Part shown: in pieces, positions 30,293 to 55,833 of the stretch
How the letters are laid out: every line of letters begins with the position of its first letter
Position numbering within the stretch: the stretch's first letter is position 1
The notes under the pieces: generated by a model
What the model saw: only the letters and a program-made list of their open reading frames with translations
The model's database searches: none
Told to the model about the DNA's origin: nothing
Position numbers and translations under genes: made by a program
NCBI GenBank assembly: GCA_015059155.1
Contig: SVAX01000002.1
Location: 85,561 to 149,560, forward strand
From: Bacillota bacterium
GTDB lineage: Bacteria > Bacillota_I > Bacilli_A > RF39 > UBA660
Reading direction: 5' to 3'
DNA length: 64,000 nt

Positions 30293-30383
30293 CCTTTAAA
30301 TATAAAGGCAAACTACTCACTGGGTAGTTGTTTGTCTGACAAAATTATCCCGCTCTAAAATCATACACGACTTGGTACATAAA
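30293..30383 (+). promoter_or_regulatory. oriT-like conserved non-coding element, copy 1
   Basis: AACTACTC-ACT-GGGTAGTT hairpin (30311-30329), TATCCCGC (30346-30353), GGTACATAAA; homologous to 55722-55833 on the minus strand. Confidence 0.55.
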
Positions 30384-30455
30384 ATTGTTAAATTATGATT
30401 GATTTTAGAGAATAAAAACACATAAGCATTAAACTTATGTGTGTATTTTTATAAA

Positions 30456-31556
30456 TTATTTTTTTATACTAGATTCCTTATCTCTAACTATATTGTTTTC
30501 TCCATTTTGAATTCGATACCAATCTTGATAAGCTTTTCCTCGCTTAAGCAAAAATCTCTGACTTGAAGAAATTAAGTTACCTAACATTTTCTCGTATGAA
30601 AGCAATCCATCAAATTGAGGATCATAATTATAAGGTTTAACATTATTTAATAAAATATTTGTTTTACCATTCATACTACCTTTTATCCACTGTGATAATA
30701 AACCATTAGTATATAACCAATTTTCAACATTTTCATAGTCAAAAACACTATACATTTGATTCAAATATGAATATAATTCGTTAAGTGCTATGGTGTTGTC
30801 CTTATTTTTATTAGTCTTATGAGATGATACTCTTATACCCTCACCTTGATAACAAGAAAGAAAAATATTAGCAAGATTTACGCTTACACTAGAGGAAATT
30901 TCCCTAACATAATTTGAATCATCTAACTTATCTATGTCCAAATTATATTTAGTCCAAGGATTGAAATCATAGCCTCTTAATTCCGAAGTTACATTAAGTC
31001 TACCTTTCTCATCAATTGTTAAATTATAAATTATTTGTTCTTTATTGTTATAAGAATTTTTAGGATAAACTTTACAATTTCCATTTTCTTTTAAAGATTG
31101 AAATATATTAAATATTTGATTGCCATAATTAACAATTCGTTCTTCTTCTATTTCATTTTCTTCTTCTATTTCTAAATCCAATTTATTTTCTTCTTTTTTT
31201 TGTTTGTTTTCTTCTTTAAAATATAAATTATGAGTATCATAAGTCAAATATTCACTTTGTTCTTCAATTCCAAATTGATTTTTTAAATATAGATAAACAA
31301 ATTCTGATACCTTCTTTGCTGAGATTGAATCTATATTTTCAATATCTAATTCTAATCTTGTTAGTGGAGGTGTATTATAACCTTCTGCATTTATGTATAA
31401 TAAATCAATGCCTTTATGTATGTGAAACCATCTAGCACCACTATTTTTTACATTTAATTCTAACCAATTATCTATTTGTTCTTTTACATAGTTTAGCAAA
31501 TCTTCTGTTTGTGATAGAACAACTTTAATAATTTTTTCATTTTGACTATTTTTCAT
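30456..31556 (-). CDS. Hypothetical protein (cargo of element B)
   Basis: 366 aa ORF with GAGG RBS; no motif recognised. Confidence 0.6.
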   Translation of the reverse strand: MKNSQNEKIIKVVLSQTEDLLNYVKEQIDNWLELNVKNSGARWFHIHKGIDLLYINAEGYNTPPLTRLELDIENIDSISAKKVSEFVYLYLKNQFGIEEQSEYLTYDTHNLYFKEENKQKKEENKLDLEIEEENEIEEERIVNYGNQIFNIFQSLKENGNCKVYPKNSYNNKEQIIYNLTIDEKGRLNVTSELRGYDFNPWTKYNLDIDKLDDSNYVREISSSVSVNLANIFLSCYQGEGIRVSSHKTNKNKDNTIALNELYSYLNQMYSVFDYENVENWLYTNGLLSQWIKGSMNGKTNILLNNVKPYNYDPQFDGLLSYEKMLGNLISSSQRFLLKRGKAYQDWYRIQNGENNIVRDKESSIKK

Positions 31557-31770
31557 TTAGATAACCTCACTTCTTTTATGATTATATCATAAAAAATACT
31601 ATTTTTCATTACATTTTATAGATTTTATGCTATAATTGACATAGAAATTAACCATTCTACATTTTTCCAAATGTGGTTTGCTTATGCACCATTTAAAAAC
31701 AACTTACGGACCAATAGGTTTCGTAGGTTTTTATTTTATGTTCTCTTTTCTAGAAAGGAGAACATTTTTT

Positions 31771-32055
31771 ATGATTAAATTTAAAGTTATAGAAGAATTA
31801 AAAACTAATACTGAATTACTAGAACTTTTAGAAAATTACGCTTACACAACTAAAAAAGGACAAATTAAATATTTAACTAATACCAATCTAAAATTCATAA
31901 AACCTATTGAATATATAGTCAAATCCCCTACTGTTCTTACTATATACGAATACAAAGTAAACGAAATAAGCAATAAACCATTTTATATCAAAGAACTTAA
32001 TCAAAAATATAATCTTACTGAACTTAAAGAAATATTAATAAAATTTAAAAATTAG
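31771..32055 (+). CDS. Divergent small protein preceding LSR C
   Basis: ATG behind AAGGAG; same position and size (94 aa); NLKFIKP and KYNLTELK resemble NLSYIEP and KIKLNELE. Confidence 0.6.
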   Translation: MIKFKVIEELKTNTELLELLENYAYTTKKGQIKYLTNTNLKFIKPIEYIVKSPTVLTIYEYKVNEISNKPFYIKELNQKYNLTELKEILIKFKN

Positions 32056-32126
32056 ACTTAACTTTTTAATTTTAAAATGCTAAACATATGAGAAATATTA
32101 AATTTTAGTCTGAAAAAACACATTTG

Positions 32127-32256
32127 AGTGAGGTATATAATGAGGGAATAAATTTTTAGGGGTAAAAAACTTGATTTAAGTGAGGTATATAGTGAATAAT
32201 AAAATAATTTTTTTCAATTTTACCCGAATAAATAGCTTTTAAGTGAGGTATATAGT
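32127..32256 (+). repeat. Three direct repeats AGTGAGGTATATA upstream of LSR C
   Basis: Copies at 32127, 32179, 32242. Confidence 0.75.
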
Positions 32257-32269
32257 AGGAGATGATTTT

Positions 32270-34057
32270 ATGAGTAAAAGAACAGGAGTATATGTTAGAG
32301 TAAGTACAGATGAGCAAAGAGATAATGGATATTCTATTGATTCACAACTTAGAATGATTAGAGAATATTGTGAAAAGAATAATTATGATATTATTGATGT
32401 TTATAATGATGCTGGACACTCTGGTAAAGATTTAATGAGACCTCAAATGAAAAGATTACTAGAAGATATTAAACACAAGAAATTAGATGTTTTAATGGCT
32501 ATTAAAGTAGATAGACTAACTAGAAATAACTATGATGGATTTTGGCTGCTAAATTATTGTGAACAAAATGATGTTAAAATTGAATTAATATTAGAACCTT
32601 ATGATGTAGGAACTGCTAATGGTGAAATGATATTTGGTATGAATTTAGTATTTGGACAAAGAGAAAGAAAAGAAATAGGAGCTAGAACTAAAAGAGCTAT
32701 GGAAGAAATGGCTTTGGAGAAAATACATCCAAATAAGGCTCCTTATGGCTATATTAGAGACAAAGACACAGGACACCTACTTGTTAATCATATTGAAGCA
32801 GAAGTCGTTAAAGAGGTATTTAAATTATATTCTAAAGGTAATTCTACAAGAACTATTGCTAAAATATTAAAAGATAATAATGCTTATTTAGTTAGTGGCA
32901 AATGGACAAGCGATAGAGTTCATAAAATATTAAACAATTCTATTTATATTGGTATTTTTGAATATGGCAAAGATAAAAGAAAAGAAGAAGATATATTAAG
33001 AGTTGAAGATTACTGTGAACCTATAATAGATATGAATTTATGGAATATAACTAGAGTTAATTTAGAGAAAAATAAAAATCCTAATTATGGTAAGCACATT
33101 CATTTATTTACTTCTATAATTAAATGTCCTGAATGTGGTAAAACATTATCTTCTACTAATTCATTTAAATACTGTGGTACACCTAGAGAAAAAGTTTATT
33201 ATCATTTAACTTATAAAAATCCTAATTGTAAATCTAAAGGAATTCATTATAGTGCGGATAAGATAGAAAATAAACTTATGAGAGTTTTAGATGAATTAAC
33301 TAGATATATGTATGATATGGATAATGAAATAATAATTTGTAATTCTACTAAATCTAAAGATATTAAAGATATAGAAAAAGCCATTGATAAATTAAAAGTT
33401 CAAGAAAAAAGATTAGTAGATTTATATTTAACATCTAATCTAAATGTAGAAGCAATTAATCATAAAAATGAAATGATAAAAAAAGAAATAGATAAATTAA
33501 TTAAAAAGAAAGATAGTTTAGATCCAAATAAAGAAAGTAAAGAATATGCTTTAGAATTGGTAAGTAAATTGGAATATCAAAAAGAAAATGACTTATATTT
33601 ATTTAACGAATTAGGATTCTCATTTATGTGGAATAGTTTAAATAGAAAAACTAAAAAAGAATTAATTAATAAATTAATAGCTAATATAGAAATATCAAGA
33701 AATGAAAACTATGATATAGAAATTAATAATATAAGATTTACTGATGAATTTATATCTAAAAATAATAAAGAGTACTTAGAATATCTAAATGATATTTTAG
33801 AGAATAATGAAATTGGTATTAAATATAAAGAACAAATTAATAGTAAAGATTTAACTAAATTAAAAAAAGATTACTATATATACTCTACTCAAAAAATGGA
33901 AAATAAAGAATATACACAAATGGATTTAGATAAAATGTATGAACTATTTGATGAACACTTTTACTATGATGGAATTATAGGATGCCCATTAAATCAAGAT
34001 GGTAATATTGTAGATTATCTATTACTAATACCTAAAACAAATGTAATTTATGAATGA
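32270..34057 (+). CDS. Large serine recombinase (element C); third zinc-ribbon Cys replaced by Tyr
   Basis: YVRVSTDEQ, KVDRLTR, CPEC...TYKNPNC; start MSKR behind AGGAG. Confidence 0.9.
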   Translation: MSKRTGVYVRVSTDEQRDNGYSIDSQLRMIREYCEKNNYDIIDVYNDAGHSGKDLMRPQMKRLLEDIKHKKLDVLMAIKVDRLTRNNYDGFWLLNYCEQNDVKIELILEPYDVGTANGEMIFGMNLVFGQRERKEIGARTKRAMEEMALEKIHPNKAPYGYIRDKDTGHLLVNHIEAEVVKEVFKLYSKGNSTRTIAKILKDNNAYLVSGKWTSDRVHKILNNSIYIGIFEYGKDKRKEEDILRVEDYCEPIIDMNLWNITRVNLEKNKNPNYGKHIHLFTSIIKCPECGKTLSSTNSFKYCGTPREKVYYHLTYKNPNCKSKGIHYSADKIENKLMRVLDELTRYMYDMDNEIIICNSTKSKDIKDIEKAIDKLKVQEKRLVDLYLTSNLNVEAINHKNEMIKKEIDKLIKKKDSLDPNKESKEYALELVSKLEYQKENDLYLFNELGFSFMWNSLNRKTKKELINKLIANIEISRNENYDIEINNIRFTDEFISKNNKEYLEYLNDILENNEIGIKYKEQINSKDLTKLKKDYYIYSTQKMENKEYTQMDLDKMYELFDEHFYYDGIIGCPLNQDGNIVDYLLLIPKTNVIYE

Positions 34058-34070
34058 AAGGAATGATAAA

Positions 34071-34250
34071 ATGAAAAAAGAAGAATTTAAAATAAATATA
34101 TTTTTTGATGAAAATGGTCCAACTTTTGAATAAATAGTTATGGAAGCATTTGAAGAAAAATTATTAGAAATAATAGAAAAATATAACGAGAAAAATAATT
34201 CCTCGTTATCAAATACAGATGAAAATAATACTGAAAAAGTAGAAAATTAA
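34071..34250 (+). pseudogene. Small ORF with in-frame TAA at 34131
   Basis: MKKEEFKINIFFDENGPTFE*IVMEAFEEK...; RBS AAAGGA. Confidence 0.5.
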
Positions 34251-34361
34251 CACTAATTTTCTATCTAGTCAAGGACTAGCAAGCACTGAATTTGTACTCC
34301 CACAAATTCTATATATAGGGATAATCCCTAAAACCCTTAAATCAAAAGAAAAAACATCACT

Positions 34362-35402: not shown

Positions 35403-35512
35403 CTCCTTATTTGATTATATCATACTACAATTATTTTTATAACTATTCTTTTAAAAAACTAGAAAACATTAAAAAAATATGATAACATTATATATAGAAA
35501 TTAGGTGGTAGT

Positions 35513-37255: not shown

Positions 37256-37278
37256 AACATATATTTAGAGGTGTTATT

Positions 37279-37485: not shown

Positions 37486-37499
37486 CCTTGATTTTTGTT

Positions 37500-38059: not shown

Positions 38060-38069
38060 TTCATTACCT

Positions 38070-39401: not shown

Positions 39402-40688
39402 CTATAAACTTTTTTTCATTTCGTAATGTGGCAATAACTTTGTTTTAATTGGCATTATTCTTGGTATTAAAATTATCGCCTCAAATACTCTTAATATTTT
39501 TAATTCTTCTACAGATATTAATGGTTTAACAACACCATCTTCACACGTTTTTCCACATAGATTACTTATTTCTTCTAATGTTTCTATATCTTGTGATAAT
39601 AAATAAACTATATTAGCAAAACATAATTTTAATATCTCAGTATTTTCCTTTCCATATTTATTTTTTAAATCATTAAATCCTCTTATCATAAGAGTAAATG
39701 TAATATTTATTCCTCTTGAGTAATTTAACATTTTTTCAAAGTTTTTTATTGGATATAATCCAAAGAAATCATCAACTATAATATTAATTTTACCTTCTTT
39801 TTTTGAGTATTCATCTTTAGCATAATATACTTGACTAATTAATAAAGGAAGTAATCTTTCTGAATTATTTGAATTACCAGAAACTACATATATTATAATT
39901 TTTTCTTTAGCTATATTAGTAATATCAAAATCTGATTTAGATAACAATTTATTTAAATTTTCTTTTGATATAAATCTTTTAATTTTTTGGCTAAATACCG
40001 ATAGTATACTTCCTCTAGTTTCAGTTGGTGCATTTAATACACCTGATAAATTAATGTAAGCACTAGATTTCTTATCAAGTTTATCTTTAAATTTATCTCC
40101 ACTTTCTTTAACTTCTATATCTAAATCTCTTATCGTAGTTAAACTTACTTCTTTTTCTGTTTCAAAAGCATATAAAGCAAGTCCCGTAAAATAATTAACT
40201 GCAGAATTAGTCCAAAACGGATCCCCATTAACTTCCTCTAAATCATATATCAAATAAAAAGCTAATTCTTCGAGCATATCTTGAGCCTTATCTTTATTTC
40301 CTTCTTTATATAATCTATAAGGCAAATCAAGTGGATTCCAATTATTTGAGTCCATAGCATCATCAAAATTTAATCTTATTACGTTATACCCATTTTCTTT
40401 AAACATTTCACTTGTTGTTTCATAAAGTTCATTTTTAGTGTCGTGAATAATTACTGATTCTCCTGCTTTATTAGCAAGTTCTAATAATGGAAGTGTTATT
40501 GTTTGTGTTTTACCACTTCCTGTTGTTCCAATAACTAATGAATGATTTAATCTATCAGAAATATATAGATAATTATCATCATAAGCCATCGGTAATCCAG
40601 AAGATTTAACTTCTGTATTCCAATTAACTCCTATTAATGGAATATATTTTTTCATATTTTCTTTGGTTTCCCATTTTGCAAAATTCAT
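39402..40688 (-). CDS. VirD4/TraG-like coupling-protein ATPase lacking TM anchor
   Basis: HSLVIGTTGSGKT, HDTKNELY, NWNPL, FWTNSA; Walker B IVDDF; KYGKEN motif. Confidence 0.8.
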   Translation of the reverse strand: MNFAKWETKENMKKYIPLIGVNWNTEVKSSGLPMAYDDNYLYISDRLNHSLVIGTTGSGKTQTITLPLLELANKAGESVIIHDTKNELYETTSEMFKENGYNVIRLNFDDAMDSNNWNPLDLPYRLYKEGNKDKAQDMLEELAFYLIYDLEEVNGDPFWTNSAVNYFTGLALYAFETEKEVSLTTIRDLDIEVKESGDKFKDKLDKKSSAYINLSGVLNAPTETRGSILSVFSQKIKRFISKENLNKLLSKSDFDITNIAKEKIIIYVVSGNSNNSERLLPLLISQVYYAKDEYSKKEGKINIIVDDFFGLYPIKNFEKMLNYSRGINITFTLMIRGFNDLKNKYGKENTEILKLCFANIVYLLSQDIETLEEISNLCGKTCEDGVVKPLISVEELKILRVFEAIILIPRIMPIKTKLLPHYEMKKSL

Positions 40689-40804
40689 AATCTTTCCTCC
40701 CTTTGACATCTAATATAACACCCTCTTTTTAACATAACTTAAACAATAGTGGTATTTTATTGATTTTTTATAAAAATTAAGGTATTATAATGTTGGTGGG
40801 AGTT

Positions 40805-44320: not shown

Positions 44321-44322
44321 TT

Positions 44323-44715: not shown

Positions 44716-44801
44716 ACTACTCTCCCTATTACATTATAGCACATCTGTTATTGACTTATTACAAAAACAATGATAAAGTATTCAAATATTGAGGTGATAC
44801 T

Positions 44802-45419
44802 GTGTCAAATTATTGTGGAGAATGCACTTATCTTGATTTAAATACGGGAGATATATATGGTAAATTTTATTGTGAAAGAAAATGGGAGAGACATTTAGCT
44901 ACAGATACAGAGTGTAATAGTTTTTGTAGAGCTTATTCAAGAGATAAATGTACAATTCAAAACGCTTATAGATATTCTGATGATCATTCAAAGGGTGGAT
45001 GCTATTTAACTACTATGTTGTGTAATATATTAGGAATGCCTGATAATAATATTTATTTAGAGACAATGAGAAGTTTCAGAAAAAATATTTTACAAAACGA
45101 TGAAAAATATAAACAATTATTAGTTGAATATGATATTATAGGCCCAAAAATAGCTAAAGCAATTAATAATGATCCTTTAAAAGAAAAAATTGCTGAAAAA
45201 CAATTTAAATTAAATATAATTCCTATTACAAACGCTATAAAAAATAATAATTTAGAGATTGCTATATCAATGTACAAAAACATGACAAATTCACTTAAAG
45301 ATTTCTACGGATTAGGAGGAATCAATATCACTAATTTAGAAATAAAGGAAGCTGATATAAAAGAATCAGGTCATGGTATTTATAAAATTAAAAAGATTAC
45401 TCCAAAATGTGTAGAGTAA
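44802..45419 (+). CDS. Cys-rich N-terminus plus CFI-box-CTERM-like domain
   Basis: CGEC...FYC...C..FC; GGCYLTT...LETMRSFR...YDIIGPKIA. Confidence 0.55.
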   Translation: MSNYCGECTYLDLNTGDIYGKFYCERKWERHLATDTECNSFCRAYSRDKCTIQNAYRYSDDHSKGGCYLTTMLCNILGMPDNNIYLETMRSFRKNILQNDEKYKQLLVEYDIIGPKIAKAINNDPLKEKIAEKQFKLNIIPITNAIKNNNLEIAISMYKNMTNSLKDFYGLGGINITNLEIKEADIKESGHGIYKIKKITPKCVE

Positions 45420-45446
45420 TCTTTTTTTGATTTTTATAAATTCTTA

Positions 45447-46244
45447 CTATAAGAACAATATTACAAGCAATCCTACTATAAAACAATAAATTGAGAAATA
45501 AATTAATTTTCCATTATTTACAATCTTTCTAAACCATTTAGTTACAAGTAAAGTAACTACTAATGAAACAATAATAGAACAAATATAATAGAATATTAAA
45601 CTTGGATCAATATTTAAATCAAATATTTCAAGTGCCATAGCAGCTATACTCATAGGTATATACAACATAAATGAATACTTAAAAGCAGTATCTCTTTTTA
45701 AACCTTGAGTCATTCCTCCAACAATTGTTGATCCACTCCTACTTATACCAGGAAATAATCCTAATATTTGAAAACATCCAACAGTCAAAGCTTCCTTAAT
45801 CCCTATCTTACTATCTTCTTTTTTACCTTTAAAGTTTCTAATAATAAATAACAATATAGCTGTAATAATCAAAGAAAAACCAACTATTTTTACATTATTT
45901 TCTATTTTATCAAATACATCAAAATAACTAACTAACAGTCCTACTAGTCCAGCAGGTACACATCCAAGTACAATCATCCATGCATATTTATAATCAATTT
46001 TAGCTTTCTCATCTTTAGTCTTTAAATATTTAAAGAAACCTTTAATAATTTTTAAAATATCATTCCAAAATAATATTATAATAGCTATTAAAGAACCAAA
46101 ATTAGTTAAAATAGCTATTGTATCAAAATCCACATTAACACACATTATCTCTTTAAAAATCATTAAATGACCACTAGATGACACAGGTATAGTCTCTGTC
46201 ATACCTTGTATAAACCCTAAAAATATATATTTTAATAATTCCAT
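45447..46244 (-). CDS. uppP: Undecaprenyl-diphosphate phosphatase
   Basis: QGMTETIPVSSSGH, PGISRSGSTI. Confidence 0.95.
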   Translation of the reverse strand: MELLKYIFLGFIQGMTETIPVSSSGHLMIFKEIMCVNVDFDTIAILTNFGSLIAIIILFWNDILKIIKGFFKYLKTKDEKAKIDYKYAWMIVLGCVPAGLVGLLVSYFDVFDKIENNVKIVGFSLIITAILLFIIRNFKGKKEDSKIGIKEALTVGCFQILGLFPGISRSGSTIVGGMTQGLKRDTAFKYSFMLYIPMSIAAMALEIFDLNIDPSLIFYYICSIIVSLVVTLLVTKWFRKIVNNGKLIYFSIYCFIVGLLVILFL

Positions 46245-46328
46245 ATAATCACCTATTTAATTATATAACAAAACTAAAGAATAATAAATAAAAAATTAAT
46301 AATTTAATAAAATTTATTAGGTGGTTAT

Positions 46329-46556
46329 ATGTTTTTTAGATTCTTTTTATTCCTTATTGGGTTTGGACTTACAACCATTGGTTCAGTATATATTATTTGT
46401 TATTTAAATTTATTTAGTATTGGGTATAATTTTTTTGATTATGTTAATTTTATAATTAGAAGAGTTGAATGTTTAAATACTTTTATTGGTATTATTATAA
46501 TGATTTTATCTTTAACTATAAGAGGAAAGGATGAAAAAAATGAATTATATTTATGA
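46329..46556 (+). CDS. Small two-TM hypothetical protein
   Basis: RBS AGGTGG, overlaps next gene. Confidence 0.55.
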   Translation: MFFRFFLFLIGFGLTTIGSVYIICYLNLFSIGYNFFDYVNFIIRRVECLNTFIGIIIMILSLTIRGKDEKNELYL

Positions 46557-47160
46557 CATATATTTAAATTTAAATGAAACGCTTTATGATTTTTTTGATT
46601 GGAATAAAAATGATAAACTAATACATATAAAAAAAATACCTATTTTTAAAGTAAATGAAGATATATTAAGGACTATAATTAACAACCAAATAAAAATAGA
46701 CGATGATTTACTACTTCAAATATATAATAAAACTGAAATTTGGATGATGAGTGGCAAAATAAATTATTGTGCTTTATTTTCTGATAGCAATACCATCATA
46801 GCAGTAGAATTCAACAAGAGTGGTAAGAGTATTAGAAAATCATTTTTATATATTGATGAAGAATTAGAAGTTTTAGAAGTAATTAATAAGTTAAATGAAA
46901 GATATATAGACTTTAATATTTTAAATAAGGAAAAAAATGTTTTTAAAACTAGAAAACAAGTAAAAGAAGAAAAATTTATTAATAGTGAATTACACCATAT
47001 GGAGGATAATAAATTAAGTTATATATATTTTGAATGTTTTGGAATACATGAAAAAAACAAAAAAATAATTTTAGAAAATATAAACAAAATTTCTAAAAAT
47101 AGTAAAACTTATAAAAATTTATATGATATTTTAAAATTAACATCAACAACTAAAAAATAA
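46531..47160 (+). CDS. DUF3603 (YjbA)-like protein
   Basis: YIYDIYLN..YDFFDWNKND, HIKKIPIFKV. Confidence 0.65.
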   Translation: MKKMNYIYDIYLNLNETLYDFFDWNKNDKLIHIKKIPIFKVNEDILRTIINNQIKIDDDLLLQIYNKTEIWMMSGKINYCALFSDSNTIIAVEFNKSGKSIRKSFLYIDEELEVLEVINKLNERYIDFNILNKEKNVFKTRKQVKEEKFINSELHHMEDNKLSYIYFECFGIHEKNKKIILENINKISKNSKTYKNLYDILKLTSTTKK

Positions 47161-47186
47161 AATGATATAATGGTTGTGGTGGTTGT

Positions 47187-48386
47187 ATGATAAAAATTGA
47201 CAAACTAGATCATTATGGTAGAGGAATAACTAGAATAAATAATAAAACAGCTTTTATTGAAAATGCTTTACCTGGTGAAATAGTAGAAGTAAAAATTCAT
47301 AAAGAAAAGAAAAAATTCATTGAAGGTATTGTTTTAAAATACATTCAAAAATCTGATAAAAGGATTAGTACAAATTGCCCTTATTATGAATCATGCGGTG
47401 GGTGTAATATAATGCACCTAGATTACCAAAATCAGCTTAAATTTAAACAGGACAAAATACAAAATATTATTAGCAAATATTTAAATAAGAATATTAAGAT
47501 CAATAATATTGTTGGTTGTGACACAAACAAAAATTACAGAAATAAGGTTACATTTCAAGTAAAAGAAAGTATTGGATTTTATAAAAATAGTACTTATGAC
47601 ATTATAAGTATTGACGAATGTTTAATTAGTGATGAATTAATAAATAATTGTATTAAATATCTAAAAAGGCTTGATTTAAAAAGTATAGATAAAATAATTT
47701 GTAGAACTGGTTCAAATGAACTTATGATTATTATAGAAACAAAAAGTATTGATTTAGATATTACTCCATTAAAAGAAATTGCACATTCTATATATTTAAA
47801 AACAAATAATGAATATACGCACGTATTTGGAAATAAAAATATCTATGAAATCTTAGATAACTATAAATTTAAAATATCTCCAGACTCATTTTTTCAAATA
47901 AATATAAATACTTGTTTAAAACTTTATAACAAAGTTAAAGATTATGTAGGTAAAGGAAAAAATGTAATTGACTTATATTGTGGAACTGGATCTATAGGAA
48001 TATTTGTTAATGAAGGTAATAAAGTTATTGGGATAGAAATAAATGAATTTGCAATAAAAGATGCTTTAGAAAATAAAAAACTTAATAATTTAGAGAATAT
48101 TGATTTTATATGTGGAGACAGTGGTAAAAGGTTAAAAGAATTAAGTTTTAATCCAGATGTTATAATTGTAGATCCTCCAAGAAGTGGTTTGAACAAAGAA
48201 ACAATTAATAATATTTTAAAGTTTGATCCTAAAGAAATAGTTTATGTTTCTTGTGATCCTATGACACTTACAAGAGATTTAAATATTCTTAGTGAATATT
48301 ATAATATAAAAGAAGTAACTCCTTTTGATATGTTTCCCAACACTCATCATGTAGAATGCTTAACTCATTTATTAAAGAAAATGTAA
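47187..48386 (+). CDS. rlmD: 23S rRNA m5U1939 methyltransferase
   Basis: TRAM domain, CPYYESCGGC, DLYCGTG, DPPRSG, YVSC, DMFPNTHHVE. Confidence 0.95.
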   Translation: MIKIDKLDHYGRGITRINNKTAFIENALPGEIVEVKIHKEKKKFIEGIVLKYIQKSDKRISTNCPYYESCGGCNIMHLDYQNQLKFKQDKIQNIISKYLNKNIKINNIVGCDTNKNYRNKVTFQVKESIGFYKNSTYDIISIDECLISDELINNCIKYLKRLDLKSIDKIICRTGSNELMIIIETKSIDLDITPLKEIAHSIYLKTNNEYTHVFGNKNIYEILDNYKFKISPDSFFQININTCLKLYNKVKDYVGKGKNVIDLYCGTGSIGIFVNEGNKVIGIEINEFAIKDALENKKLNNLENIDFICGDSGKRLKELSFNPDVIIVDPPRSGLNKETINNILKFDPKEIVYVSCDPMTLTRDLNILSEYYNIKEVTPFDMFPNTHHVECLTHLLKKM

Positions 48387-48490
48387 AAAAATGTATATTT
48401 TTTAGAAAAACTACATAAAAGTAGTTTTTTCTATGTTTTTTGCTCCTATTAAATGTTAAAATTAAGTTGATATAATATGAGGAGGTTCTT

Positions 48491-49270
48491 ATGATATATA
48501 ATTTTAAAGAATATAAGACTTCATTTGATACTCCAATGAGAAGACAACAAGAACTTGCAATTTCAAGAAAAATAATGGATTTATTAAACAAAAATAAATA
48601 TGATGATTTAGAAGAATTTATAACTAAAAATAGTAATTATCAAGATTTTCTTAGAAATAACAATATGGAAACAGTGGTAAAACACTTTGGAAATACTTTA
48701 AAAGAAAATGATTATGCAAAAATATTAGAAAACTTAAGAGTTCTTACAAAAACTAAAAAAGATTTTGAAAAGGACAATATTAAAACTACTAATATAAACG
48801 ATAAACAATATACAACTTTTAAAGGTGAAGATAAAACATATTTTATAGATAACTCTAGAAGTGAAAAGTCTATTGAAGAACAAATGAAAGATTTACAAAC
48901 TACACAGCAAGATTTTCAAACTTCTAATCAAAATAAAAATACAGAGAATATGTTTAAGGAACTAGAAACAAGAAAAGAAATACTAAATTTAAATTACTTA
49001 AATCAAATTAATTATGAATTATTAAACGATGAAGAAAAAGTATTATTTCAAATAGCTAATGATTATCAACAAAACATAGACGGTACTATAAGAGTTGATT
49101 TAAAAAAAGGTGTTATTGTTGATGAATTAAATGAAATTATGAAAATAGAAAAAAATAATGGTGAATTCACTATAATAAAAGATGAAAACGGTGTTGAAAA
49201 AGAAGAAGTTAAAGAAAAAACTTTTCAAAAAACATTAACACCTAATAGAAATACTATTTATAGTAATTAG
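48491..49270 (+). CDS. Hypothetical soluble protein
   Basis: 259 aa ORF with GGAGG RBS. Confidence 0.6.
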   Translation: MIYNFKEYKTSFDTPMRRQQELAISRKIMDLLNKNKYDDLEEFITKNSNYQDFLRNNNMETVVKHFGNTLKENDYAKILENLRVLTKTKKDFEKDNIKTTNINDKQYTTFKGEDKTYFIDNSRSEKSIEEQMKDLQTTQQDFQTSNQNKNTENMFKELETRKEILNLNYLNQINYELLNDEEKVLFQIANDYQQNIDGTIRVDLKKGVIVDELNEIMKIEKNNGEFTIIKDENGVEKEEVKEKTFQKTLTPNRNTIYSN

Positions 49271-49283
49271 AAAGGATGATATT

Positions 49284-49730
49284 ATGAATAATAATCGAAT
49301 GAATTTCGACCCTATGACAGGGCAACCTATTAATCAAAATACTAATGCCAATAATGTTTATAACAATAATGTGACACCTAATACAGTGCCACAAGATAAT
49401 ATTCAACCGATTCCTTCTGTTCAACCAGTCCCTACTGTGGAATCTGTTCAACCTGTTCCTCCTACTCAAAACACACAAACCACACCTACAGTAGATCCTA
49501 CTCAAATGGCTCAACCTACACCTATAGTTAATACCCAACAACAAATGCAAAATATTCCAACAGTTGATCAAACAAAACAAGAATTTATTAATAATACACA
49601 AGCAAATAACACTGTTAAAAAAGATGAAAAAAAGGATGCTCCTAATATTGTATTTATTGTAATTTTATTTGTAATTATATTAGCTGCAATATTGTTCTTA
49701 TTCCCTTATTTACATAATCTTTTAGGTTAA
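49284..49730 (+). CDS. P/Q/N/T-rich protein with C-terminal TM
   Basis: FDPMTGQP motif, PVQP repeats, terminal TM. Confidence 0.65.
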   Translation: MNNNRMNFDPMTGQPINQNTNANNVYNNNVTPNTVPQDNIQPIPSVQPVPTVESVQPVPPTQNTQTTPTVDPTQMAQPTPIVNTQQQMQNIPTVDQTKQEFINNTQANNTVKKDEKKDAPNIVFIVILFVIILAAILFLFPYLHNLLG

Positions 49731-49763
49731 TGAAAAAATCTTTAGATAAAATTCTAAAGATTT

Positions 49764-50837
49764 TTAATTTAATTTTAAAACTTGGCCTATGCTTAGTACT
49801 GTAGTACCTAAATTATTTAATTTCATTAATTCACTTACTGTGGTATTATTTGATTGGGCTATCTTATATAAACTATCTCCACTCTTGACTGTATATGTAC
49901 TTGAACTATTATTTGGTAATTTCAACACTTGACCTATGCTTAATAAAGTGCTAGATAAATTATTTAAATTCATCAGTTGACTTACTGTTGTGTTATTTAC
50001 TCTAGCTATTTCATATAAATTATCTCCACTTTTTACTGTATATGTATTTACTGCACTAGATGTACTAGGTAACTTTAAAACTTGACCTATACTTAATGCT
50101 GTACTGCTTAAATTATTTAAACTAACTAACTCATTTACTGTCGTATTATAGTTTTGAGCTATCTTATATAAACTATCCCCACTCTTAACTGTATATGTAT
50201 TACCAGTAGGTGTAACTACAGGGATTTCTAATATTTGACCTATACTAAGAGAAGTAGATGTTAAATTATTCAACTTCATTATTTCACTTACTGTAGTATC
50301 ATAATTTTGTGCTATTTTATATAGACTGTCTCCTCTTTTTACTACATAAACATTTTCTTTTGGTTCTTCTTTTTCAATAACAGGGATCTTTAATACATCA
50401 CCAATTGTAAGCATAGAACTAGTAAGCCCGTTAGCGTCTTTTAAATCTGGCACACTTATATTATACTTTTTAGCTATACTCCATAAGCTATCTCCACTTT
50501 TTACTGTATAATAGTTTGCTCCCTCTACAGGCACATATGTTAAATTTAAATATTCTATAATAGCCCTAACAACTGCTTCTGCATAATTTTCCCAGTTGTT
50601 TTTTAATTGACTAATATCATCACCAGTACTATCTAAAAAACCATACTCTACTGTAATAGACTCTGTATCTCCTGTATTTCTTTGCATAAAATAATAATCT
50701 TTTGACGTATCACTAGGTAATCTTCTTTGATATGCTTTTCTGATATTTTGTCCTTCGTTTTCTAGCTCTGTTAATATTAAATTAGATAATGTATCTTTAT
50801 TTCTAAGTGCATAAATCACTTCAGCACCATCGCCACC
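49764..50837 (-). CDS. 3' fragment of split N-acetylmuramoyl-L-alanine amidase with five LysM repeats
   Basis: Begins GGDGAEVIYALRN; catalytic VEYGF; five YxVKxGDxL LysM repeats; the MDTR start comes from element DNA. Confidence 0.9.
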   Translation of the reverse strand, partial: GGDGAEVIYALRNKDTLSNLILTELENEGQNIRKAYQRRLPSDTSKDYYFMQRNTGDTESITVEYGFLDSTGDDISQLKNNWENYAEAVVRAIIEYLNLTYVPVEGANYYTVKSGDSLWSIAKKYNISVPDLKDANGLTSSMLTIGDVLKIPVIEKEEPKENVYVVKRGDSLYKIAQNYDTTVSEIMKLNNLTSTSLSIGQILEIPVVTPTGNTYTVKSGDSLYKIAQNYNTTVNELVSLNNLSSTALSIGQVLKLPSTSSAVNTYTVKSGDNLYEIARVNNTTVSQLMNLNNLSSTLLSIGQVLKLPNNSSSTYTVKSGDSLYKIAQSNNTTVSELMKLNNLGTTVLSIGQVLKLN

Positions 50838-51036
50838 ACGTGTATCCATTTACCAATAGTAAATAAAATATTGTATATAAGAATAAAAATAAAGTGATGA
50901 CACTAGACGCTAAATCGCCACGACCATCACTCCTATTACATAGTATTAATCTATGTAAAAAGTATGTCTCCAACGAATGATACATAAAAAGTCCCAAACA
51001 GCACGTCCGAAACGAATGGAGCATTTACTTTAATTA

Positions 51037-51101
51037 AGCAGATTGTTCCGACCGACAAGATTGATATTCAATCAGTAAATCGGTTTGTAGAACAATCTGC
51101 T
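51037..51101. repeat. Long imperfect hairpin, copy 1
   Basis: AGCAGATTGTTC/GAACAATCTGCT 12-bp stem; inner TTCCGAC...GTTTGTAGAA. Confidence 0.75.
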
Positions 51102-51422
51102 AATAGTAATTATACTTAAAAATTTTAAAAAGTCAATCAAATATTAAAAAAAGCCATCAATCCCAATATACGAATCAAGACTTTTCTTTTATTAGATTAT
51201 TCATAACAATTATTAAATAAATCAGTATGACTATAATCTACTATTATTTCAAAAAATTAAACTGATTCATAAATCAATCTTCATCATACGTCCAAAACGT
51301 CGAATAGTTTTTTGATATAAAGATTATAACATTATAACTATAAAAAATCAAACTAGTATAGCAACTTAACTTACATTTTAGCATTATACATGATATACTA
51401 TAAATAGTTAAAGAGGTGAATT

Positions 51423-52007
51423 ATGAAAATAATAAAAGACCATCGTTATTACATTGATGAATATAAAACATTGAAAAATTTTCTTGATGGTTTAATAGAA
51501 TTGCTTAATAATAAAAAAATTAAAGGAATATTTTCTCAAGACGCAATAACATACTCGTCTAATGCAAAATTTACAGATAAAATATATAGTCTGATTGATT
51601 ATAATTTTATTGTTTTTGATGATGATACAGTTATAAAATTTGAATATAATTTTTTTAGTATGCTGTATGTATACTACACTGATATAAAGTGTTTATGGGA
51701 TGAAGATCTAGAAATAATAAAAAACGAAGCATTCAAGTTAGAATTAGATTATTCCAACAGCTCCATAATAGATTATGAAATAGAAAGATTCTCAGATGAA
51801 TATATAATTAATCCAAGGGATGATGCAACTAGACCAGAAGGTGGAGACTATTTTAAAGAAATTATATTTCATTTAAGCAATAACAAAAAATTATGTATAT
51901 GTGCAGAAAATGCAGAATTTGATGGATATTGTGATGTCTGGATAGAAAATGATAACTTAAAAGGAATATACAATAGTGATAGTCATAAAGTTTGGTGGAA
52001 AGATTAA
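51423..52007 (+). CDS. Hypothetical protein
   Basis: 194 aa, GAGGTG RBS. Confidence 0.65.
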   Translation: MKIIKDHRYYIDEYKTLKNFLDGLIELLNNKKIKGIFSQDAITYSSNAKFTDKIYSLIDYNFIVFDDDTVIKFEYNFFSMLYVYYTDIKCLWDEDLEIIKNEAFKLELDYSNSSIIDYEIERFSDEYIINPRDDATRPEGGDYFKEIIFHLSNNKKLCICAENAEFDGYCDVWIENDNLKGIYNSDSHKVWWKD

Positions 52008-52014
52008 TAAAAAA

Positions 52015-52072
52015 CAGTTTATTCCGACAGGTCTTCTAAATAAATTAGCGAGTCTGTTTGTAGAATAAACTG
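52015..52072. repeat. Long imperfect hairpin, copy 2
   Basis: CAGTTTATTC/GAATAAACTG stem; same TTCCGAC...GTTTGTAGAA core with compensatory stem changes. Confidence 0.75.
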
Positions 52073-52230
52073 AAAAAACATAGGATGTGGAATTAAATGA
52101 CTTATAGTCCTTCAATATTAACGTCCAAAACGACACATCTGGTTTTTATAACAATACTATATAATAAATTATAATTATTGTCAATTAAATATTGAGATTT
52201 TAATATATAATAAAAACAATATTTTTAGAG

Positions 52231-52767
52231 GTGAATAATATGTGGATAAAATTTAATTTAGAAGAAATGATTTTGGAATTGAAAATAGAAAATTATGAAC
52301 CTAATCAAACGCTTGATGGTTCTTGGACAAAAGTATCCTTTAATTTTAAGTTTGAAAACATAATTAACTATAGTACACAAAATAATGAAATTTTATTATG
52401 TTGTGAAATTGATGAATTAAGAGATAAATTTTTTAATTTATTAAATGACAAATTAACAGAAAATGTTTATTATAGTTGTTTAGAACCTGATTTTGAATTT
52501 ATACTTCGTCCAAAATTTGATGTTCGCAATAATCCGAATTTAATATATGTTAAACCAGGAAATGAAATTATTGATATAGATATGGAATTAAGGGTAAATC
52601 TATGGAATAATGGACTAACATGTAATTATTTTTCTACTTCATTTTATAGGGAAGAAATAAATAATTTATACTTATATTTTTCTTTAATATCTAATAAAAT
52701 ATCCTTAAATGATGAAAAAATAAAAAAATTAATTGATTTAGGGATTATTTATAGAGATACTAAATAA
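52231..52767 (+). CDS. Hypothetical protein (WapI/immunity-like appearance)
   Basis: Acidic/aromatic; LEPDFEF motif; family assignment weak. Confidence 0.55.
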   Translation: MNNMWIKFNLEEMILELKIENYEPNQTLDGSWTKVSFNFKFENIINYSTQNNEILLCCEIDELRDKFFNLLNDKLTENVYYSCLEPDFEFILRPKFDVRNNPNLIYVKPGNEIIDIDMELRVNLWNNGLTCNYFSTSFYREEINNLYLYFSLISNKISLNDEKIKKLIDLGIIYRDTK

Positions 52768-52797
52768 ATTTATTGTATTTTTGAAAGAAGGTATTAT

Positions 52798-53508
52798 ATG
52801 AGCTTATTAAAAGGAAAACATTTTTTTGATACTATATATCATTATGACAACACTGAAATCATTTTAAAAAAAGAGAAAAATAAATACTACATTATCGTTA
52901 ATAACAAAAAATTTGAATTTAACAGTTATAAAAAAGCAATTAATTATGGAATAATAGAATCATACCCTAATATAAAAATTAATATTAAAGATATAGATAA
53001 AATACTAAATTATTACCAAAAAATAGAGAAAATCAAATTAAAAGGGCAAAAACTGGGCAAAGACTTTTTTATAGATTATGAAGATGAAATGAAAGATGAA
53101 AATGATTTTTCTAATTATTGGATAAGAAAGAAATTAAGTGAAAAATATTATAAATTACCACTCGATAAAAGTAGCAAAAATATAAATGATAAAATGCTAT
53201 ATAAAAAATATGTATCTACTTTGGAAGATTTAATTGAAGAAATAAAATCTATAAAAGAAGATAAAAGAGACTTGGAAATGTATTGTATTCTAAATTATAG
53301 ACAGGTTGATTGTATAAATAGATGTGTTGAGGTAGATGAAGGTTGGTCAACTGATTTGTTAAAATTTGAACAATATTATAAAGAAATGATTGATTTTATA
53401 TACTATCCAGGATTTAAGTATAATGAAATTTCATTAGAAGAATTAGCTATAATTCAAATGATGGCATCACATTTAATATTACGAGCAAAAAATTTAATAA
53501 AAAAGTAA
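52798..53508 (+). CDS. Hypothetical protein
   Basis: 236 aa ORF, AAGG RBS. Confidence 0.55.
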   Translation: MSLLKGKHFFDTIYHYDNTEIILKKEKNKYYIIVNNKKFEFNSYKKAINYGIIESYPNIKINIKDIDKILNYYQKIEKIKLKGQKLGKDFFIDYEDEMKDENDFSNYWIRKKLSEKYYKLPLDKSSKNINDKMLYKKYVSTLEDLIEEIKSIKEDKRDLEMYCILNYRQVDCINRCVEVDEGWSTDLLKFEQYYKEMIDFIYYPGFKYNEISLEELAIIQMMASHLILRAKNLIKK

Positions 53509-53585
53509 TATGAAAATTATAACAAGCTTTATTAAAAATTATAATAATATTCCAACTTCCATTAACACAAAGATAAAAAACTTTT

Positions 53586-55244
53586 CTATTTTGTTTTACC
53601 TTTTTTACCATATGGATTTCTAATTAATTTTTTATTTTCATATCTAAAATTTATTTCCGGTATAACTTCATATTTAAATTTAATATTTATGTTTCTATTT
53701 TCATCTATCACAATTTTATCTATTAATGTATCAATTAGCTCTTTTTTAGGTTTGTTTAAATCTAAAAGTTTTTTTATTTTTTTAGTATAATTTGGCAAAA
53801 TATTTGCCTTATTTTTTATGTTTTCAATTTTATTCTTTTCTATTTCAATGCTATTATTAATTTTCTTTAATTTCCTTTCTGATTCCATAGATAGTTCTTT
53901 ATATAGTTCAGTTGTTATTATTCCATCACATCTATCATTATATAAATTAGATAATCTATTAATTATTTGTTCTTTTTCTAAAGTTAATTTATCAATAATT
54001 TTATCTATACTTTCAGTTTCTTTATGTATGTTTTTAACAACTTCTCTATTTAATTCTTGTAAATCTAATTCATTAATAAATATATATACAGCTGATTCAA
54101 TTTGTTCTAATAATTGTTGTTCTAAATAATCATATGGATAAAAATGAGAAGAACATCTACCCCTTTTTGGATCCCTAGAATATCTATTACAATTAATTGA
54201 CCAGTAATCAAACTTCTTTCTATAATAAACTGATAATCTATTACCACACTCTTTGCAATATATTTTTCCTTCAAACATTCTTTTAGGTCTTGTAGTTTTT
54301 AAAGAATAATTTCTAGAATGTCTATTCTTTAATGTTTGTACATATTCAAATGTTTTTTTATCTACTAATGGCTCATGAGTATTTTCTACTATTATCCACA
54401 AACTCTTATCTAAAGTTATTTTCTTCTTTGATTTATAATTAACTTTTGATTGAGTGTGTTGTACCATATCACCTGTATAGATTCTATTTGTAAGAATCTT
54501 TTTTACTGAAGATATATTCCACTCATCTCTAATAATTAATCTTGAAGAAAATTTAATATTCTTATATTGACTTGGAGTTGGTATATTTTCATTATTAAGT
54601 CTAGTTGCAATTTCAGTAGGACCAATGCCATCTACTCGCCATTTAAATATTTTTTTTACTGTCGGAGCTGTTTTAGGATCTGGTATTAAATGTCCTTTAT
54701 CTTCTGGATCTCTCATATATCCATAACTTGGTTTACTACCTATAAATTTACCATTACGTCTTTTGTCATTAAGTACATTTTTAATCTTAATAGAATTTTG
54801 TTTACTATAATAATCATTACAAGCAATAATAAATGTTGATGAATCATTACTCGCTTGATTTTTAAAACTATCATATGATTCTAGAATTGAAATAAATCTA
54901 ATACTATTCTCTGGAAAAAATGTTTCTATGTAATATCCAGTCATAACATGATCTCTACCAAATCTTGATAAATCTTTAACTATTACACAATTTATTTTTT
55001 TCTTTTTAATATCTTCTAACATTTTTTGAAATCCAGGTCTATCAAAATTTGTTCCTGAATATCCATCATCAACATATTCTCCAGATAAATTAAAATTATT
55101 ATTTTTAACATAACTTTTTAGTAATTCTTTTTGATTAATAACACTTTCACTATCAGATTCATATTTTTTATCTTTATCTTCTTGAGATAACCTAATGTAT
55201 ATTCCTACATTAAATTCTTGCTGGAGTAAATAATTATAATTCAT
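53586..55244 (-). CDS. Large serine recombinase (TnpX/CisA-like)
   Basis: YIRLSQED, VKDLSRFGR, GSKPSYGY, CKECG..C...C. Confidence 0.95.
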   Translation of the reverse strand: MNYNYLLQQEFNVGIYIRLSQEDKDKKYESDSESVINQKELLKSYVKNNNFNLSGEYVDDGYSGTNFDRPGFQKMLEDIKKKKINCVIVKDLSRFGRDHVMTGYYIETFFPENSIRFISILESYDSFKNQASNDSSTFIIACNDYYSKQNSIKIKNVLNDKRRNGKFIGSKPSYGYMRDPEDKGHLIPDPKTAPTVKKIFKWRVDGIGPTEIATRLNNENIPTPSQYKNIKFSSRLIIRDEWNISSVKKILTNRIYTGDMVQHTQSKVNYKSKKKITLDKSLWIIVENTHEPLVDKKTFEYVQTLKNRHSRNYSLKTTRPKRMFEGKIYCKECGNRLSVYYRKKFDYWSINCNRYSRDPKRGRCSSHFYPYDYLEQQLLEQIESAVYIFINELDLQELNREVVKNIHKETESIDKIIDKLTLEKEQIINRLSNLYNDRCDGIITTELYKELSMESERKLKKINNSIEIEKNKIENIKNKANILPNYTKKIKKLLDLNKPKKELIDTLIDKIVIDENRNINIKFKYEVIPEINFRYENKKLIRNPYGKKGKTK

Positions 55245-55296
55245 TTATGCCTCCTTTCTATTTAATAAAACACTTAAGTAATTAAATAATAACGCG

Positions 55297-55404
55297 CTAT
55301 TTAAAAAAATACAGCGCCTTATTTTCACTTTTTTCATTTTCTTTTGTTATCTCTTCAATAAGATATTTCAAAATTAAATCTTTAAAAGTTATATTGTTAT
55401 TCAT
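55297..55404 (-). CDS. 35-aa ORF upstream of the LSR
   Basis: MNNNITFKDLILKYLIEEITK...; AGGTG RBS; not in ORF track. Confidence 0.4.
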   Translation of the reverse strand: MNNNITFKDLILKYLIEEITKENEKSENKALYFFK

Positions 55405-55515
55405 AGCAACACCTATTTAAAGTTATGTTTTGTTTATTTACTTTATTATTTTTTAAATACATTTAAATCCCCCCTTTTTAATAATTAAAAGGTCCCTATG
55501 TTTCGGACATAAGGA

Positions 55516-55686
55516 CTATTTTTGACTTTCAAGTATTACTATAAGATTGTTATAAACATAATCTTTTAATAGATTTTCTAGAACAGATTGAATAGTAGTT
55601 TTCTTTATTTTAAGTATTTGTCTAAATGCGCCATTAAGATTAGAATCAATCACAAATTTAATTTGAATATTTTTTTCATTGTTCAT
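55516..55686 (-). CDS. 56-aa ribbon-helix-helix-like DNA-binding protein
   Basis: AAGGAG RBS; IQIKFVID alternating strand, then helices (GAFRQILK, IQSVLENLLKDYV); not in ORF track. Confidence 0.55.
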   Translation of the reverse strand: MNNEKNIQIKFVIDSNLNGAFRQILKIKKTTIQSVLENLLKDYVYNNLIVILESQK

Positions 55687-55721
55687 TTTTTCATCTCCTT
55701 TCTTTAAATTTTTGTATCAGA

Positions 55722-55833
55722 TTTATGTACCTAAAATTGCTAATTTTCAAATTTTGTTTCAATCAAAAAAAAGCAGGATAACTCCTGTTTACAAACAACT
55801 CACCAGTGGTGAGTTTAGCCTTATTTTATAAGG
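55722..55833 (-). promoter_or_regulatory. oriT-like conserved non-coding element, copy 2
   Basis: AACTCACC-ACT-GGTGAGTT hairpin (55797-55815); TATCCTGC (55773-55780) matches the IncP/T-border nick consensus YATCCTG/Y. Confidence 0.6.

Follow-up and report, generated by a model that had tools for sequence, protein, structure and literature searches.

Two likely orphan transfer origins of MobL type on relaxase-less recombinase elements in an uncultured gut Bacilli genome

The 64,000-nucleotide stretch of contig SVAX01000002.1 (assembly GCA_015059155.1, a Bacillota bacterium) analysed here, called the window throughout, carries the same non-coding motif twice, at 30293-30384 on the forward strand (copy 1) and at 55721-55833 on the reverse strand (copy 2), within two recombinase elements named element B and element 2. 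The question raised by this locus is what such a motif does in both. An initial annotation of the window had proposed an origin of transfer (oriT) shared by the two elements and used in trans. The comparisons reported here make it probable that the two copies are orphan oriTs of oriT-only integrative elements, hitchers mobilised in trans. Since these elements carry a transfer site without the enzyme that would cut it, they most likely spread by borrowing the transfer machinery of a neighbour.

Both copies were recovered where they had been described, and align through two inverted repeats (IR1 and IR2), GTTTGT, TTATCC(C/T)GC and GGTACATAAA. Their parts are as follows:

30169-30189, 30234-30254 and 30265-30275, forward strand: repeated boxes upstream of copy 1, respectively TGTTATAACAAATGTATGACA, TGTTATAACAAATGTCGGACA and ATGTCTGACAT, candidate accessory-protein sites; the repeats at 30169 and 30234 have the form TGTTATAACAAATGT(A/C)(T/G)GACA
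30293-30308, forward strand: IR1 hairpin of copy 1, CCTTTAAATATAAAGG, folding as CCTTTA-AATA-TAAAGG
30311-30329, forward strand: IR2 hairpin of copy 1, AACTACTC-ACT-GGGTAGTT, with an 8 bp stem, an ACT loop and one T.G wobble
30330-30341, forward strand: GTTTGT and box 4 of copy 1, GTCTGACA
30345-30353, forward strand: putative nick-like core of copy 1, TTATCCCGC
30372-30384, forward strand: TTGGTACATAAAA box of copy 1, which most subtype-B copies have about 25 nt past the nick-like core
55869-55930, reverse strand: two 18-bp direct repeats of copy 2, GTTTACGATTGTATAACA, each consisting of a pair of boxes spaced by 11 bp
55851-55860, reverse strand: box 3 of copy 2, GTGTAAACAC, with a 7-mer identical to the box past IR2 (GTAAACA)
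55819-55833, reverse strand: IR1 hairpin of copy 2, CCTTAT-AAA-ATAAGG
55797-55815, reverse strand: IR2 hairpin of copy 2, AACTCACC-ACT-GGTGAGTT
55785-55796, reverse strand: GTTTGT and box 4 of copy 2, GTAAACAG, together as GTTTGTAAACAG
55773-55781, reverse strand: putative nick-like core of copy 2, TTATCCTGC
55721-55733, reverse strand: GGTACATAAA box of copy 2, immediately 5' of the ribosome-binding site of a 56-aa gene
55516-55686, reverse strand: the 56-aa gene, sm56, adjoining copy 2
in both window copies: the stretch from IR2 through TTATCCTGCTTT, spanning hairpin to core

The compensatory changes noticed in IR2 hold on inspection, the stem differing between the copies at three positions, which correspond to two compensated pairs and to the T.G wobble of copy 1. 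The 18-bp direct repeat reported beside copy 2 is also real (GTTTACGATTGTATAACA at 55913-55930 and 55871-55888, reverse strand), and its proximal unit is kept in nearly all copies of the subtype, defined below as A, to which copy 2 belongs. The repeats upstream of copy 1 had gone unlisted in the initial annotation. In each copy the box past IR2 repeats the upstream box, as GTAAACA in copy 2 and as GTCTGACA in copy 1. Near the core of copy 2, CAGGA/TCCTG may fold into a third, small hairpin with a T-run after it, a feature limited to subtype A. Within the 1.0 Mb genome, the hairpin pattern AAACTNNNCACTGGNNAGTTGTTTGT has exactly 2 matches, against 0 in the reversed control, and a covariance model, R1, gives the two window copies scores of 87.7 and 63.8 bits, with E-values of 1.3e-14 and 1.1e-9.

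A check across genomes by BLAST and covariance model had been suggested along with the oriT proposal. It reveals a widespread family, with at least 118 loci identified by an exact-pattern scan of one genome per prokaryotic species. Eighty loci were fetched; except for 3 chance matches, they come from gut metagenome-assembled genomes, labelled as uncultured Bacilli, Tenericutes, 'Mycoplasma sp. CAG:472' and 'Clostridium sp. CAG:914'. The pattern is also present in 6 of 60 related genomes, which bring the new compensated stems AGC/GCT and CGC/GCG, and when 301 species sampled from the host family were searched with model R1, 49 proved to have the motif. BLAST of both copies against a plasmid database gave no relevant match, and a search of the whole window against Rfam 15 assigned the motif to no family at the gathering threshold, the sole match being the tRNA at 21066-21149.

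In order to describe the family, 73 distinct copies were aligned. The bases fixed by the search pattern carry no information in this alignment; TTATCCTG, IR1 and the boxes lay outside the pattern. The shared layout comprises, in order, three or four boxes of GTnnnACA type (spaced by about 11 and about 20 bp), IR1, IR2, GTTTGT with a fourth box, and the core. The boxes are conserved in register across the family, and are placed on one helical face. The core reads TTATCCTG(C/A)T across the 73 copies, with TTAT invariant and CCTGC at least 90% conserved, although they were not fixed by the search. In the IR1 columns, evaluated on 67 distinct sequences, 83.6% of cells are paired, with a UA/CG exchange at one pair. 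The figure rises to 98.5% for IR2, where base and top are conserved and the middle covaries freely: the two pairs left free by the pattern occur as AU/CG/UA and as GC/CG/AU/GU/UA. The covariation score of IR2 is 0.237, versus 0.089 in shuffles (0 of 500) and at most 0.086 in slid controls; by this alignment, the IR2 hairpin is under selection for pairing.

The copies fall into two subtypes. In subtype A, to which copy 2 belongs, the boxes read GTAAACA/GTATAACA, and a T-run accompanies a CAGG..CCTG mini-hairpin. In subtype B, that of copy 1, the boxes read GT(A/C)(A/T)(G/T)ACA, and are followed by TAAAAA and usually TTGGTACA. The box past IR2 fits the upstream boxes of its own copy better than those of the others (6.4 vs 5.6 of 8; permutation p<2e-4). 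Such covariation within copies is what predicted, lineage-specific protein-binding sites would look like.

Two further observations concern the rest of the same genome. Outside the window, a degenerate third copy (contig C12:34087-34142, reverse strand; 29.4 bits with R1) keeps IR1 intact, as CCTTTAAAATAAAGG; its IR2 is collapsed to AAACT|TGTTTGT and its core is mutated to TTATCTAGC, so that it looks like a decayed origin. On contig C3, the region 56701-57264 ends inside a gene similar to sm56 (58% identity over 26 aa), after which a small ORF (open reading frame) and the start of a serine recombinase are found; a further copy of the motif probably lies just past this assembly break.

The genomic context of 85 copies was then analyzed, by comparing all ORFs of the loci to reference proteins by local BLAST and to Pfam. 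Co-occurrence with relaxases had been set beforehand as a check, and the motif turned out to be tied to operons of the MobL relaxase. Fifteen copies, 8 of subtype A and 7 of subtype B, sit 0.1-0.8 kb upstream of genes for a NikA-like protein (PF21983) and a MobL protein (PF18555, 73-106 bits). In these 15 the motif is preceded by VirB4 and an M23 peptidase, and followed by the NikA-like protein, the MobL relaxase and a coupling protein, in that order; in most of them (8 A, 1 B) a small first protein, of a type named sm76, comes between the motif and the NikA-like protein. MobL itself is present in 27 of the 301 host-family genomes. In the reciprocal test on these genomes, the motif was found 0.7-1.9 kb upstream, on the same strand, of 13 of the 15 strong MobL genes (E<=1e-20 with upstream DNA available). 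The motif also accompanies a partial MobL on a fourteenth contig, and weaker, shorter MobL-like genes occur without it.

Box type tracks relaxase clade. MobL proteins linked to subtype A are 73-93% identical to one another, and those linked to subtype B are 41-46% identical to them. Since the subtypes follow relaxase clades this distant, the two window copies, one B and one A, probably depend on different helpers. The proposal of a shared oriT used in trans is retained in its core, as the motif occupies the canonical oriT position in related clusters of type IV secretion system (T4SS) genes; that a single helper would serve both elements is doubtful. The two MobL clusters analyzed at length, in genomes G277 and G182, are compact T4SS modules of about 20 kb, distinct from the chromosomal T4SS cluster of the host (30-42% identity), and the motif is found in conjugative clusters without any recombinase nearby. 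The 25.8 kb MobL contig of G182, when checked for circularity, showed no terminal overlap.

The arrangement is that of the Bacillus subtilis plasmid pLS20, whose oriT, aux1, aux2 and rel follow one another inside the conjugation operon, and where experiments have established the oriT and its nick site, as well as binding by two ribbon-helix-helix (RHH) proteins (PMC5313138, PMC5675868). The same order of origin, small protein, NikA-like/RHH protein and MobL relaxase within a T4SS operon is observed here, as compared with the MOBL relaxase RelLS20 and Aux1/Aux2 of pLS20. Direct-repeat boxes lie upstream in both systems (3x TGTGCAT for Aux2 in pLS20), and both have an inverted repeat beside the nick, which is putative here. 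A TGGTAC-type box is also common to both, TGGTACCA bound by Aux1 in pLS20 (PMC5675868) and TTGGTACATAAA in the present family, a resemblance only. The GGTACA boxes at 30372-30384 and 55721-55733 resemble this Aux1 site, and the three upstream boxes parallel the Aux2 sites. The two systems differ in that the present, putative origin has no sequence similarity to that of pLS20, in that its hosts are uncultured gut Bacilli of about 1 Mb and 25% GC, and in that Pfam reveals no relation to Aux1 for the small first protein (56-76 aa).

The initial annotation had attributed the core to the MOB-P class of origins. MOB-P nick regions, such as those of IncP RP4/R751 and of the Ti-plasmid border, have the consensus YATCCTG|Y, a sequence reportedly defined by Pansegrau and Lanka and by Waters and Guiney. 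The invariant core TTATCCTG(C/A) fits this consensus exactly, and cleavage would be expected there. RHH accessory proteins of TraJ/NikA type are a further likeness, and one relaxase linked to subtype B shows an additional, sub-threshold match to the MobA/VirD2 nuclease. The relaxase of the present family, unlike those of MOB-P, is not a member of PF03432 above threshold: the cognate enzyme is MobL (MOBL, PF18555), which has been described as closest to MOBP (PMC5313138, PMC5675868).

The gene adjoining copy 2, sm56, had been reported as RHH-like. It is a genuine gene and a homologue of the first gene of MobL operons, sharing 52.5% identity over 59 aa with the gene of 76 aa that comes first, ahead of the NikA-like and MobL genes, at locus L023; at least 9 members of the family could be aligned. 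No match was found in Pfam or in a sequence search of the PDB. In the monomer predicted by AF2 (pLDDT 81), the N-terminus is extended and helices span 15-27, 32-46 and 48-54. The product of sm56 is a candidate RHH-type accessory protein of the relaxosome, for which an RHH fold is plausible.

Most copies lie elsewhere than in MobL operons. For 51 of the 85, the neighbouring gene encodes a serine recombinase, and the DNA fetched around them contains no relaxase. For 37 copies, a large serine recombinase (LSR) gene is located 0.3-1.1 kb downstream, sometimes with a gene of about 57 aa in between, which is the setting of copy 2. Fourteen subtype-B copies (copy 1 and 13 other loci) lie about 226 bp downstream of a recombinase gene of LSR_B type, itself preceded by a gene of about 95-97 aa. 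Relaxase-less recombinase hitchers and conjugative clusters are thus in a ratio of about 3:1 in the loci examined. The corresponding features of the window are:

27845-28138, forward strand: 97-aa gene of the element B module
28292-30073, forward strand: LSR-B of the element B module (Pfam Resolvase, Recombinase, Zn_ribbon_recom)
50838-63753: element 2, an insertion of 12.9 kb that interrupts an amidase-LysM gene, as defined by junction reconstruction
53586-55244, reverse strand: LSR-E of element 2, identified by Pfam

The two recombinases, LSR-B and LSR-E, which the initial annotation had placed in different families, are only 26% identical. Both elements are, again as annotated, without a recognisable relaxase: Pfam detected no relaxase or T4SS family in the scanned ORFs of elements 2 and B (several of which match no family, and which for element 2 comprise all but a few ORFs of 70 aa or less), and tblastn gave no matches for MobL and NikA in either element.

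At the tRNA 21066-21149, recombinase elements are arrayed in tandem, and element B is the second of them; copy 1 lies about 220-240 bp downstream of the LSR-B stop codon. The left junction of element B, 27754-27764, resembles the 3' end of the tRNA, and repeats the GCACCA and TCGAACTAnTCGA/hairpin layout found after it; the right end could not be located, short BLAST and regular-expression searches giving noise only. The array junctions (21150-21260 and 27700-27850) share GCACCA-T, a TCGAACTA(T/A)TCGA motif, ATATATGAAA and a hairpin, and each unit opens with a paralogous gene of 96 or 97 aa (47% identical) ahead of LSR-A or LSR-B. In the first unit, a Mob_Pre (MOBV) relaxase gene is located at 23862-25277 on the forward strand, between LSR-A and three unknown genes and 5 kb upstream of copy 1. 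This gene makes the first unit a mobilisable element of the ordinary kind, with a relaxase of its own, in contrast to elements B and 2. Mob_Pre was considered as the cognate relaxase of the motif and rejected, as it lies in the neighbouring element and a Mob_Pre-like match occurs at one other fetched motif locus only (L102). Moreover, the two window copies are the only full ones that R1 detects in this genome, so that none accompanies the Mob_Pre gene.

The borders of element 2 are better defined. Joining 50837 to 63754 over a shared CCACC restores a 440-codon amidase-LysM frame, and contigs from the source samples span both junctions. The listed joints for a circle or an empty site were rejected as spurious, their sides being 20-22 nt long. 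Besides LSR-E, sm56 and copy 2, the element has genes for an XRE regulator, a Sau3AI-like nuclease with its C5 methylase, a WapI-like immunity protein and an NTPase of 967 aa. The defence-type genes are found near the origin: the WapI-like gene at 52231-52767 on the forward strand, and the double-MutH-domain nuclease, the C5 cytosine methylase and the 967-aa NTPase (57623-60416). The amidase-LysM gene is intact in the related genome G277 (loci L148/L149, G277:C1:280953-304908), where this orthologue, 52% identical, and the start of a subtype-B MobL conjugative cluster are about 1 kb apart; the neighbourhood is the same as that in which element 2 is inserted in the window.

Possible helpers were sought in related genomes and in metagenomes. 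A genome of the same genus, G021, carries a subtype-A MobL cluster (locus L023); this integrative and conjugative element was found in rabbit-gut runs only, and not in the runs holding the window. The gut samples which hold the window also hold MobL contigs. In one metagenome, X1, element 2 is present at a depth of about 20, together with a 17.6 kb contig (depth 16.7) bearing the motif and a MobL about 82% identical to that of locus L101. X1 holds the left part of element 2 (within 50220-55925) at about 98-99% identity; the 3' part of the amidase gene (50253-50561) shows about 39 differences. The adjoining chromosome, 44800-50090, was not found at >=97% in the contigs of X1, from which absence is not provable. 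This suggests that element 2 sits in X1 in a diverged host background. In the host assembly, a weak MobL match at C9:72945-73130 (13.7 bits) was discarded as spurious, since it lies among RNase R/SmpB housekeeping genes and has no Pfam support.

A number of results weigh against the interpretation of the two copies as transfer origins mobilised in trans. Neither MobL nor a NikA-like gene was detected in the host assembly, which is 69.6% complete. Orphan copies are the only ones in 35 of the 49 motif-bearing genomes, and genomes with orphans are only weakly enriched in MobL (5/40 vs 11/261 in the 301-genome sample). The contigs of the source samples show the integrated form only, with no excised circle and no empty site. 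The RHH fold of sm56 is not significant by Foldseek, whose top matches (Arc, CopG, ParD and VapB) all have E>1. The distance from the inverted repeat to the nick, typically 8 nt in origins of IncP/IncQ type, is about 22 nt to the putative nick here. The nic site of pLS20 falls in a stretch of 73% GC, at the start of GGCTTTTTGC..GCAAAAAGCC (PMC5313138), whereas here an AT-rich TTATCCTGC follows a 22-nt spacer. Lastly, the motif has the orientation of the downstream operon wherever there is one, and it overlaps promoter-like hexamers (at IR1) and, in subtype A, a terminator-like hairpin on the TTATCCTG core.

The last two observations would suit a motif acting only as promoter, operator or leader of the downstream operon, with RHH or XRE repressors bound to the boxes and no role as transfer origin in the recombinase elements. 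The orientation shared with downstream genes at most loci, the hexamers over IR1, the short hairpin and T-run on the core in subtype A, and repeated boxes resembling operators all fit such a function, and it also counts in its favour that promoter activity is common in the oriT regions of known plasmids. Regulation alone is nevertheless unlikely. Copy 1 faces a convergent gene and is therefore without a downstream gene to regulate; the copies at L024, L040, L064 and L105 face a convergent gene as well. The 14 subtype-B copies keep their fixed distance of about 226 bp past the recombinase gene while the cargo ahead of them is unrelated, and the TTATCCTG core is invariant in subtype B, where neither hairpin nor T-run is found. 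The place between M23 peptidase and accessory genes is moreover the place of oriT in pLS20, whose operon promoter lies 26 kb upstream (PMC5675868). The regulatory and oriT functions are not mutually exclusive, and may coexist. It is quite unlikely that the orphan copies are inert fossils, left by deletion from conjugative elements and no longer functional, even though a degenerate copy with IR2 deleted occurs in the same genome (C12:34087-34142), the assembly has no helper relaxase, and most motif-bearing genomes are without MobL. More than 50 orphan copies from many genera keep IR1, IR2, boxes and core as well as the relaxase-linked copies do, compensatory IR2 changes included, and they lie at fixed distances in at least two conserved layouts of the recombinase module with unrelated cargo, which argues for long maintenance rather than recent deletion. 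In addition, one sample contains element 2 with about 98-99% identity, although the flanking chromosome was not found in it at >=97%.

A small structured RNA of about 45-60 nt, made of IR2 and the terminator-like hairpin, or a cis-acting leader or attenuator, would explain the compensatory variation of IR2 with the T.G wobble of copy 1, and the terminator-like hairpin and T-run of subtype A; a 49-nt piece over IR1 and IR2 was also seen in a faecal run labelled as 'transcriptomic'. The latter consists of fragmentary contigs of unclear origin, at depth 2-3, and is uninformative. No Rfam match was obtained, subtype B keeps the core without the terminator, and mismatches occur on both strands (as T.G or as C.A on the strand shown, the C.A, common in one clade, corresponding to G.T on the other strand), so that no consistent signal of an RNA strand emerges; an RNA is accordingly held to be very improbable. 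Least probable of all is a replication origin, double- or single-strand, of rolling-circle type, or an attachment site of the recombinase. In favour of these readings are the hairpin followed by a conserved nick-like sequence and the recombinase genes close by. No Rep gene, though, adjoins the motif in any context examined, the junctions of element 2 (50837/63754) lie 5-8 kb from it, and conjugative clusters have the motif with no recombinase in the vicinity; recombinases sharing 26% identity would furthermore not share an attachment site.

The comparisons establish the sequence family, its covariation, the synteny with relaxase operons, the lack of a relaxase and the borders of element 2. If the copies are orphan oriTs, as is considered probable, we infer the following course of binding, nicking and mobilisation. 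RHH-type accessory proteins (the NikA-like protein and sm56/sm76) would bind the boxes, and the MobL relaxase would recognise IR2 and nick in or beside TATCCTG|C. The strand shown would then be transferred 5' to 3' through the type IV system, IR2 acting in termination. The hitchers would excise by their own recombinase and be mobilised in trans by a MobL element, with element 2 supplying its own copy of the first accessory protein.

Other transfer genes are present in and around the window. A chromosomal T4SS cluster of about 30 kb, located between RNase R/RmuC and ScpAB, extends over 1-19618 of the window (reverse strand) and C9:75341-85560. Its products include VirB4-like, TrbL/VirB6-like and pilin-like proteins, a VirB11-like T2SSE ATPase, an M23/glucosaminidase hydrolase and a coupling protein of 691 aa; neither a relaxase nor a NikA-like gene was found within the cluster, and no copy of the motif either. 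A second coupling-protein gene (39402-40709, reverse strand; 435 aa, T4SS-DNA_transf) stands alone beside an AraC gene. Its product is 30-46% identical to the coupling proteins which follow MobL in conjugative clusters, and the gene is possibly the remnant of a lost conjugative module. That the oriT-only elements, some with an accessory protein of their own, are adapted to the chromosomal system, a 'public', pLS20-like T4SS with a coupling protein and without a relaxase, is a conceivable, rather doubtful extension of the oriT interpretation. Were it true, only MobL, with the NikA-like protein, would be needed in trans, even transiently from an incoming element; conjugation would be split between chromosome, helper and hitchers, and the two oriT subtypes would represent separate mobilisation networks in the gut.

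The strategy is already known, and is seen here in a new group. Earlier cases of oriT mimicry are the mobilizable genomic islands that mimic the oriT of SXT/R391, and the oriT-mimic plasmids of Staphylococcus. Integrative elements with an oriT only, named iOriT, have been surveyed in six nosocomial species (Ares-Arroyo et al., bioRxiv 10.64898/2026.01.13.699239). Like these, the elements described here are integrated, and carry a recombinase and a helper-like oriT without relaxase or mating-pair genes; they are otherwise unrelated to their helpers, outnumber them, and have defence genes near the oriT, as shown by the restriction-modification pair and the NTPase of element 2. They differ in having an origin of MOBL type, in residing in uncultured gut Bacilli as serine-recombinase elements, in that one class of hitchers has retained a relaxosome accessory gene of its own, and in that the host lineage also has a chromosomal, relaxase-less T4SS cluster. 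Within the library that was searched, no paper was found to link this lineage to relaxases or oriT. What is new is therefore the definition of the likely origin of a MOBL clade in uncultured gut Bacilli, with two putative specificity subtypes, and a population of serine-recombinase hitchers which outnumber the conjugative clusters and of which one class retains the accessory-protein gene.

All together, a likely transfer origin of a MobL-type family is defined by sequence and structure, and is present in about one in six of the sampled species of the host family. It offers a concrete route for the horizontal spread of defence and other cargo genes in a group not yet culturable, and a compact model of 70 nt by which such hitchers may be found in metagenomes. 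The class of oriT-only integrative elements would be extended past clinical Proteobacteria and Firmicutes, and to MOBL relaxases. The two subtypes, in which boxes, accessory proteins and relaxase clade covary, would provide a natural system for the study of relaxosome specificity.

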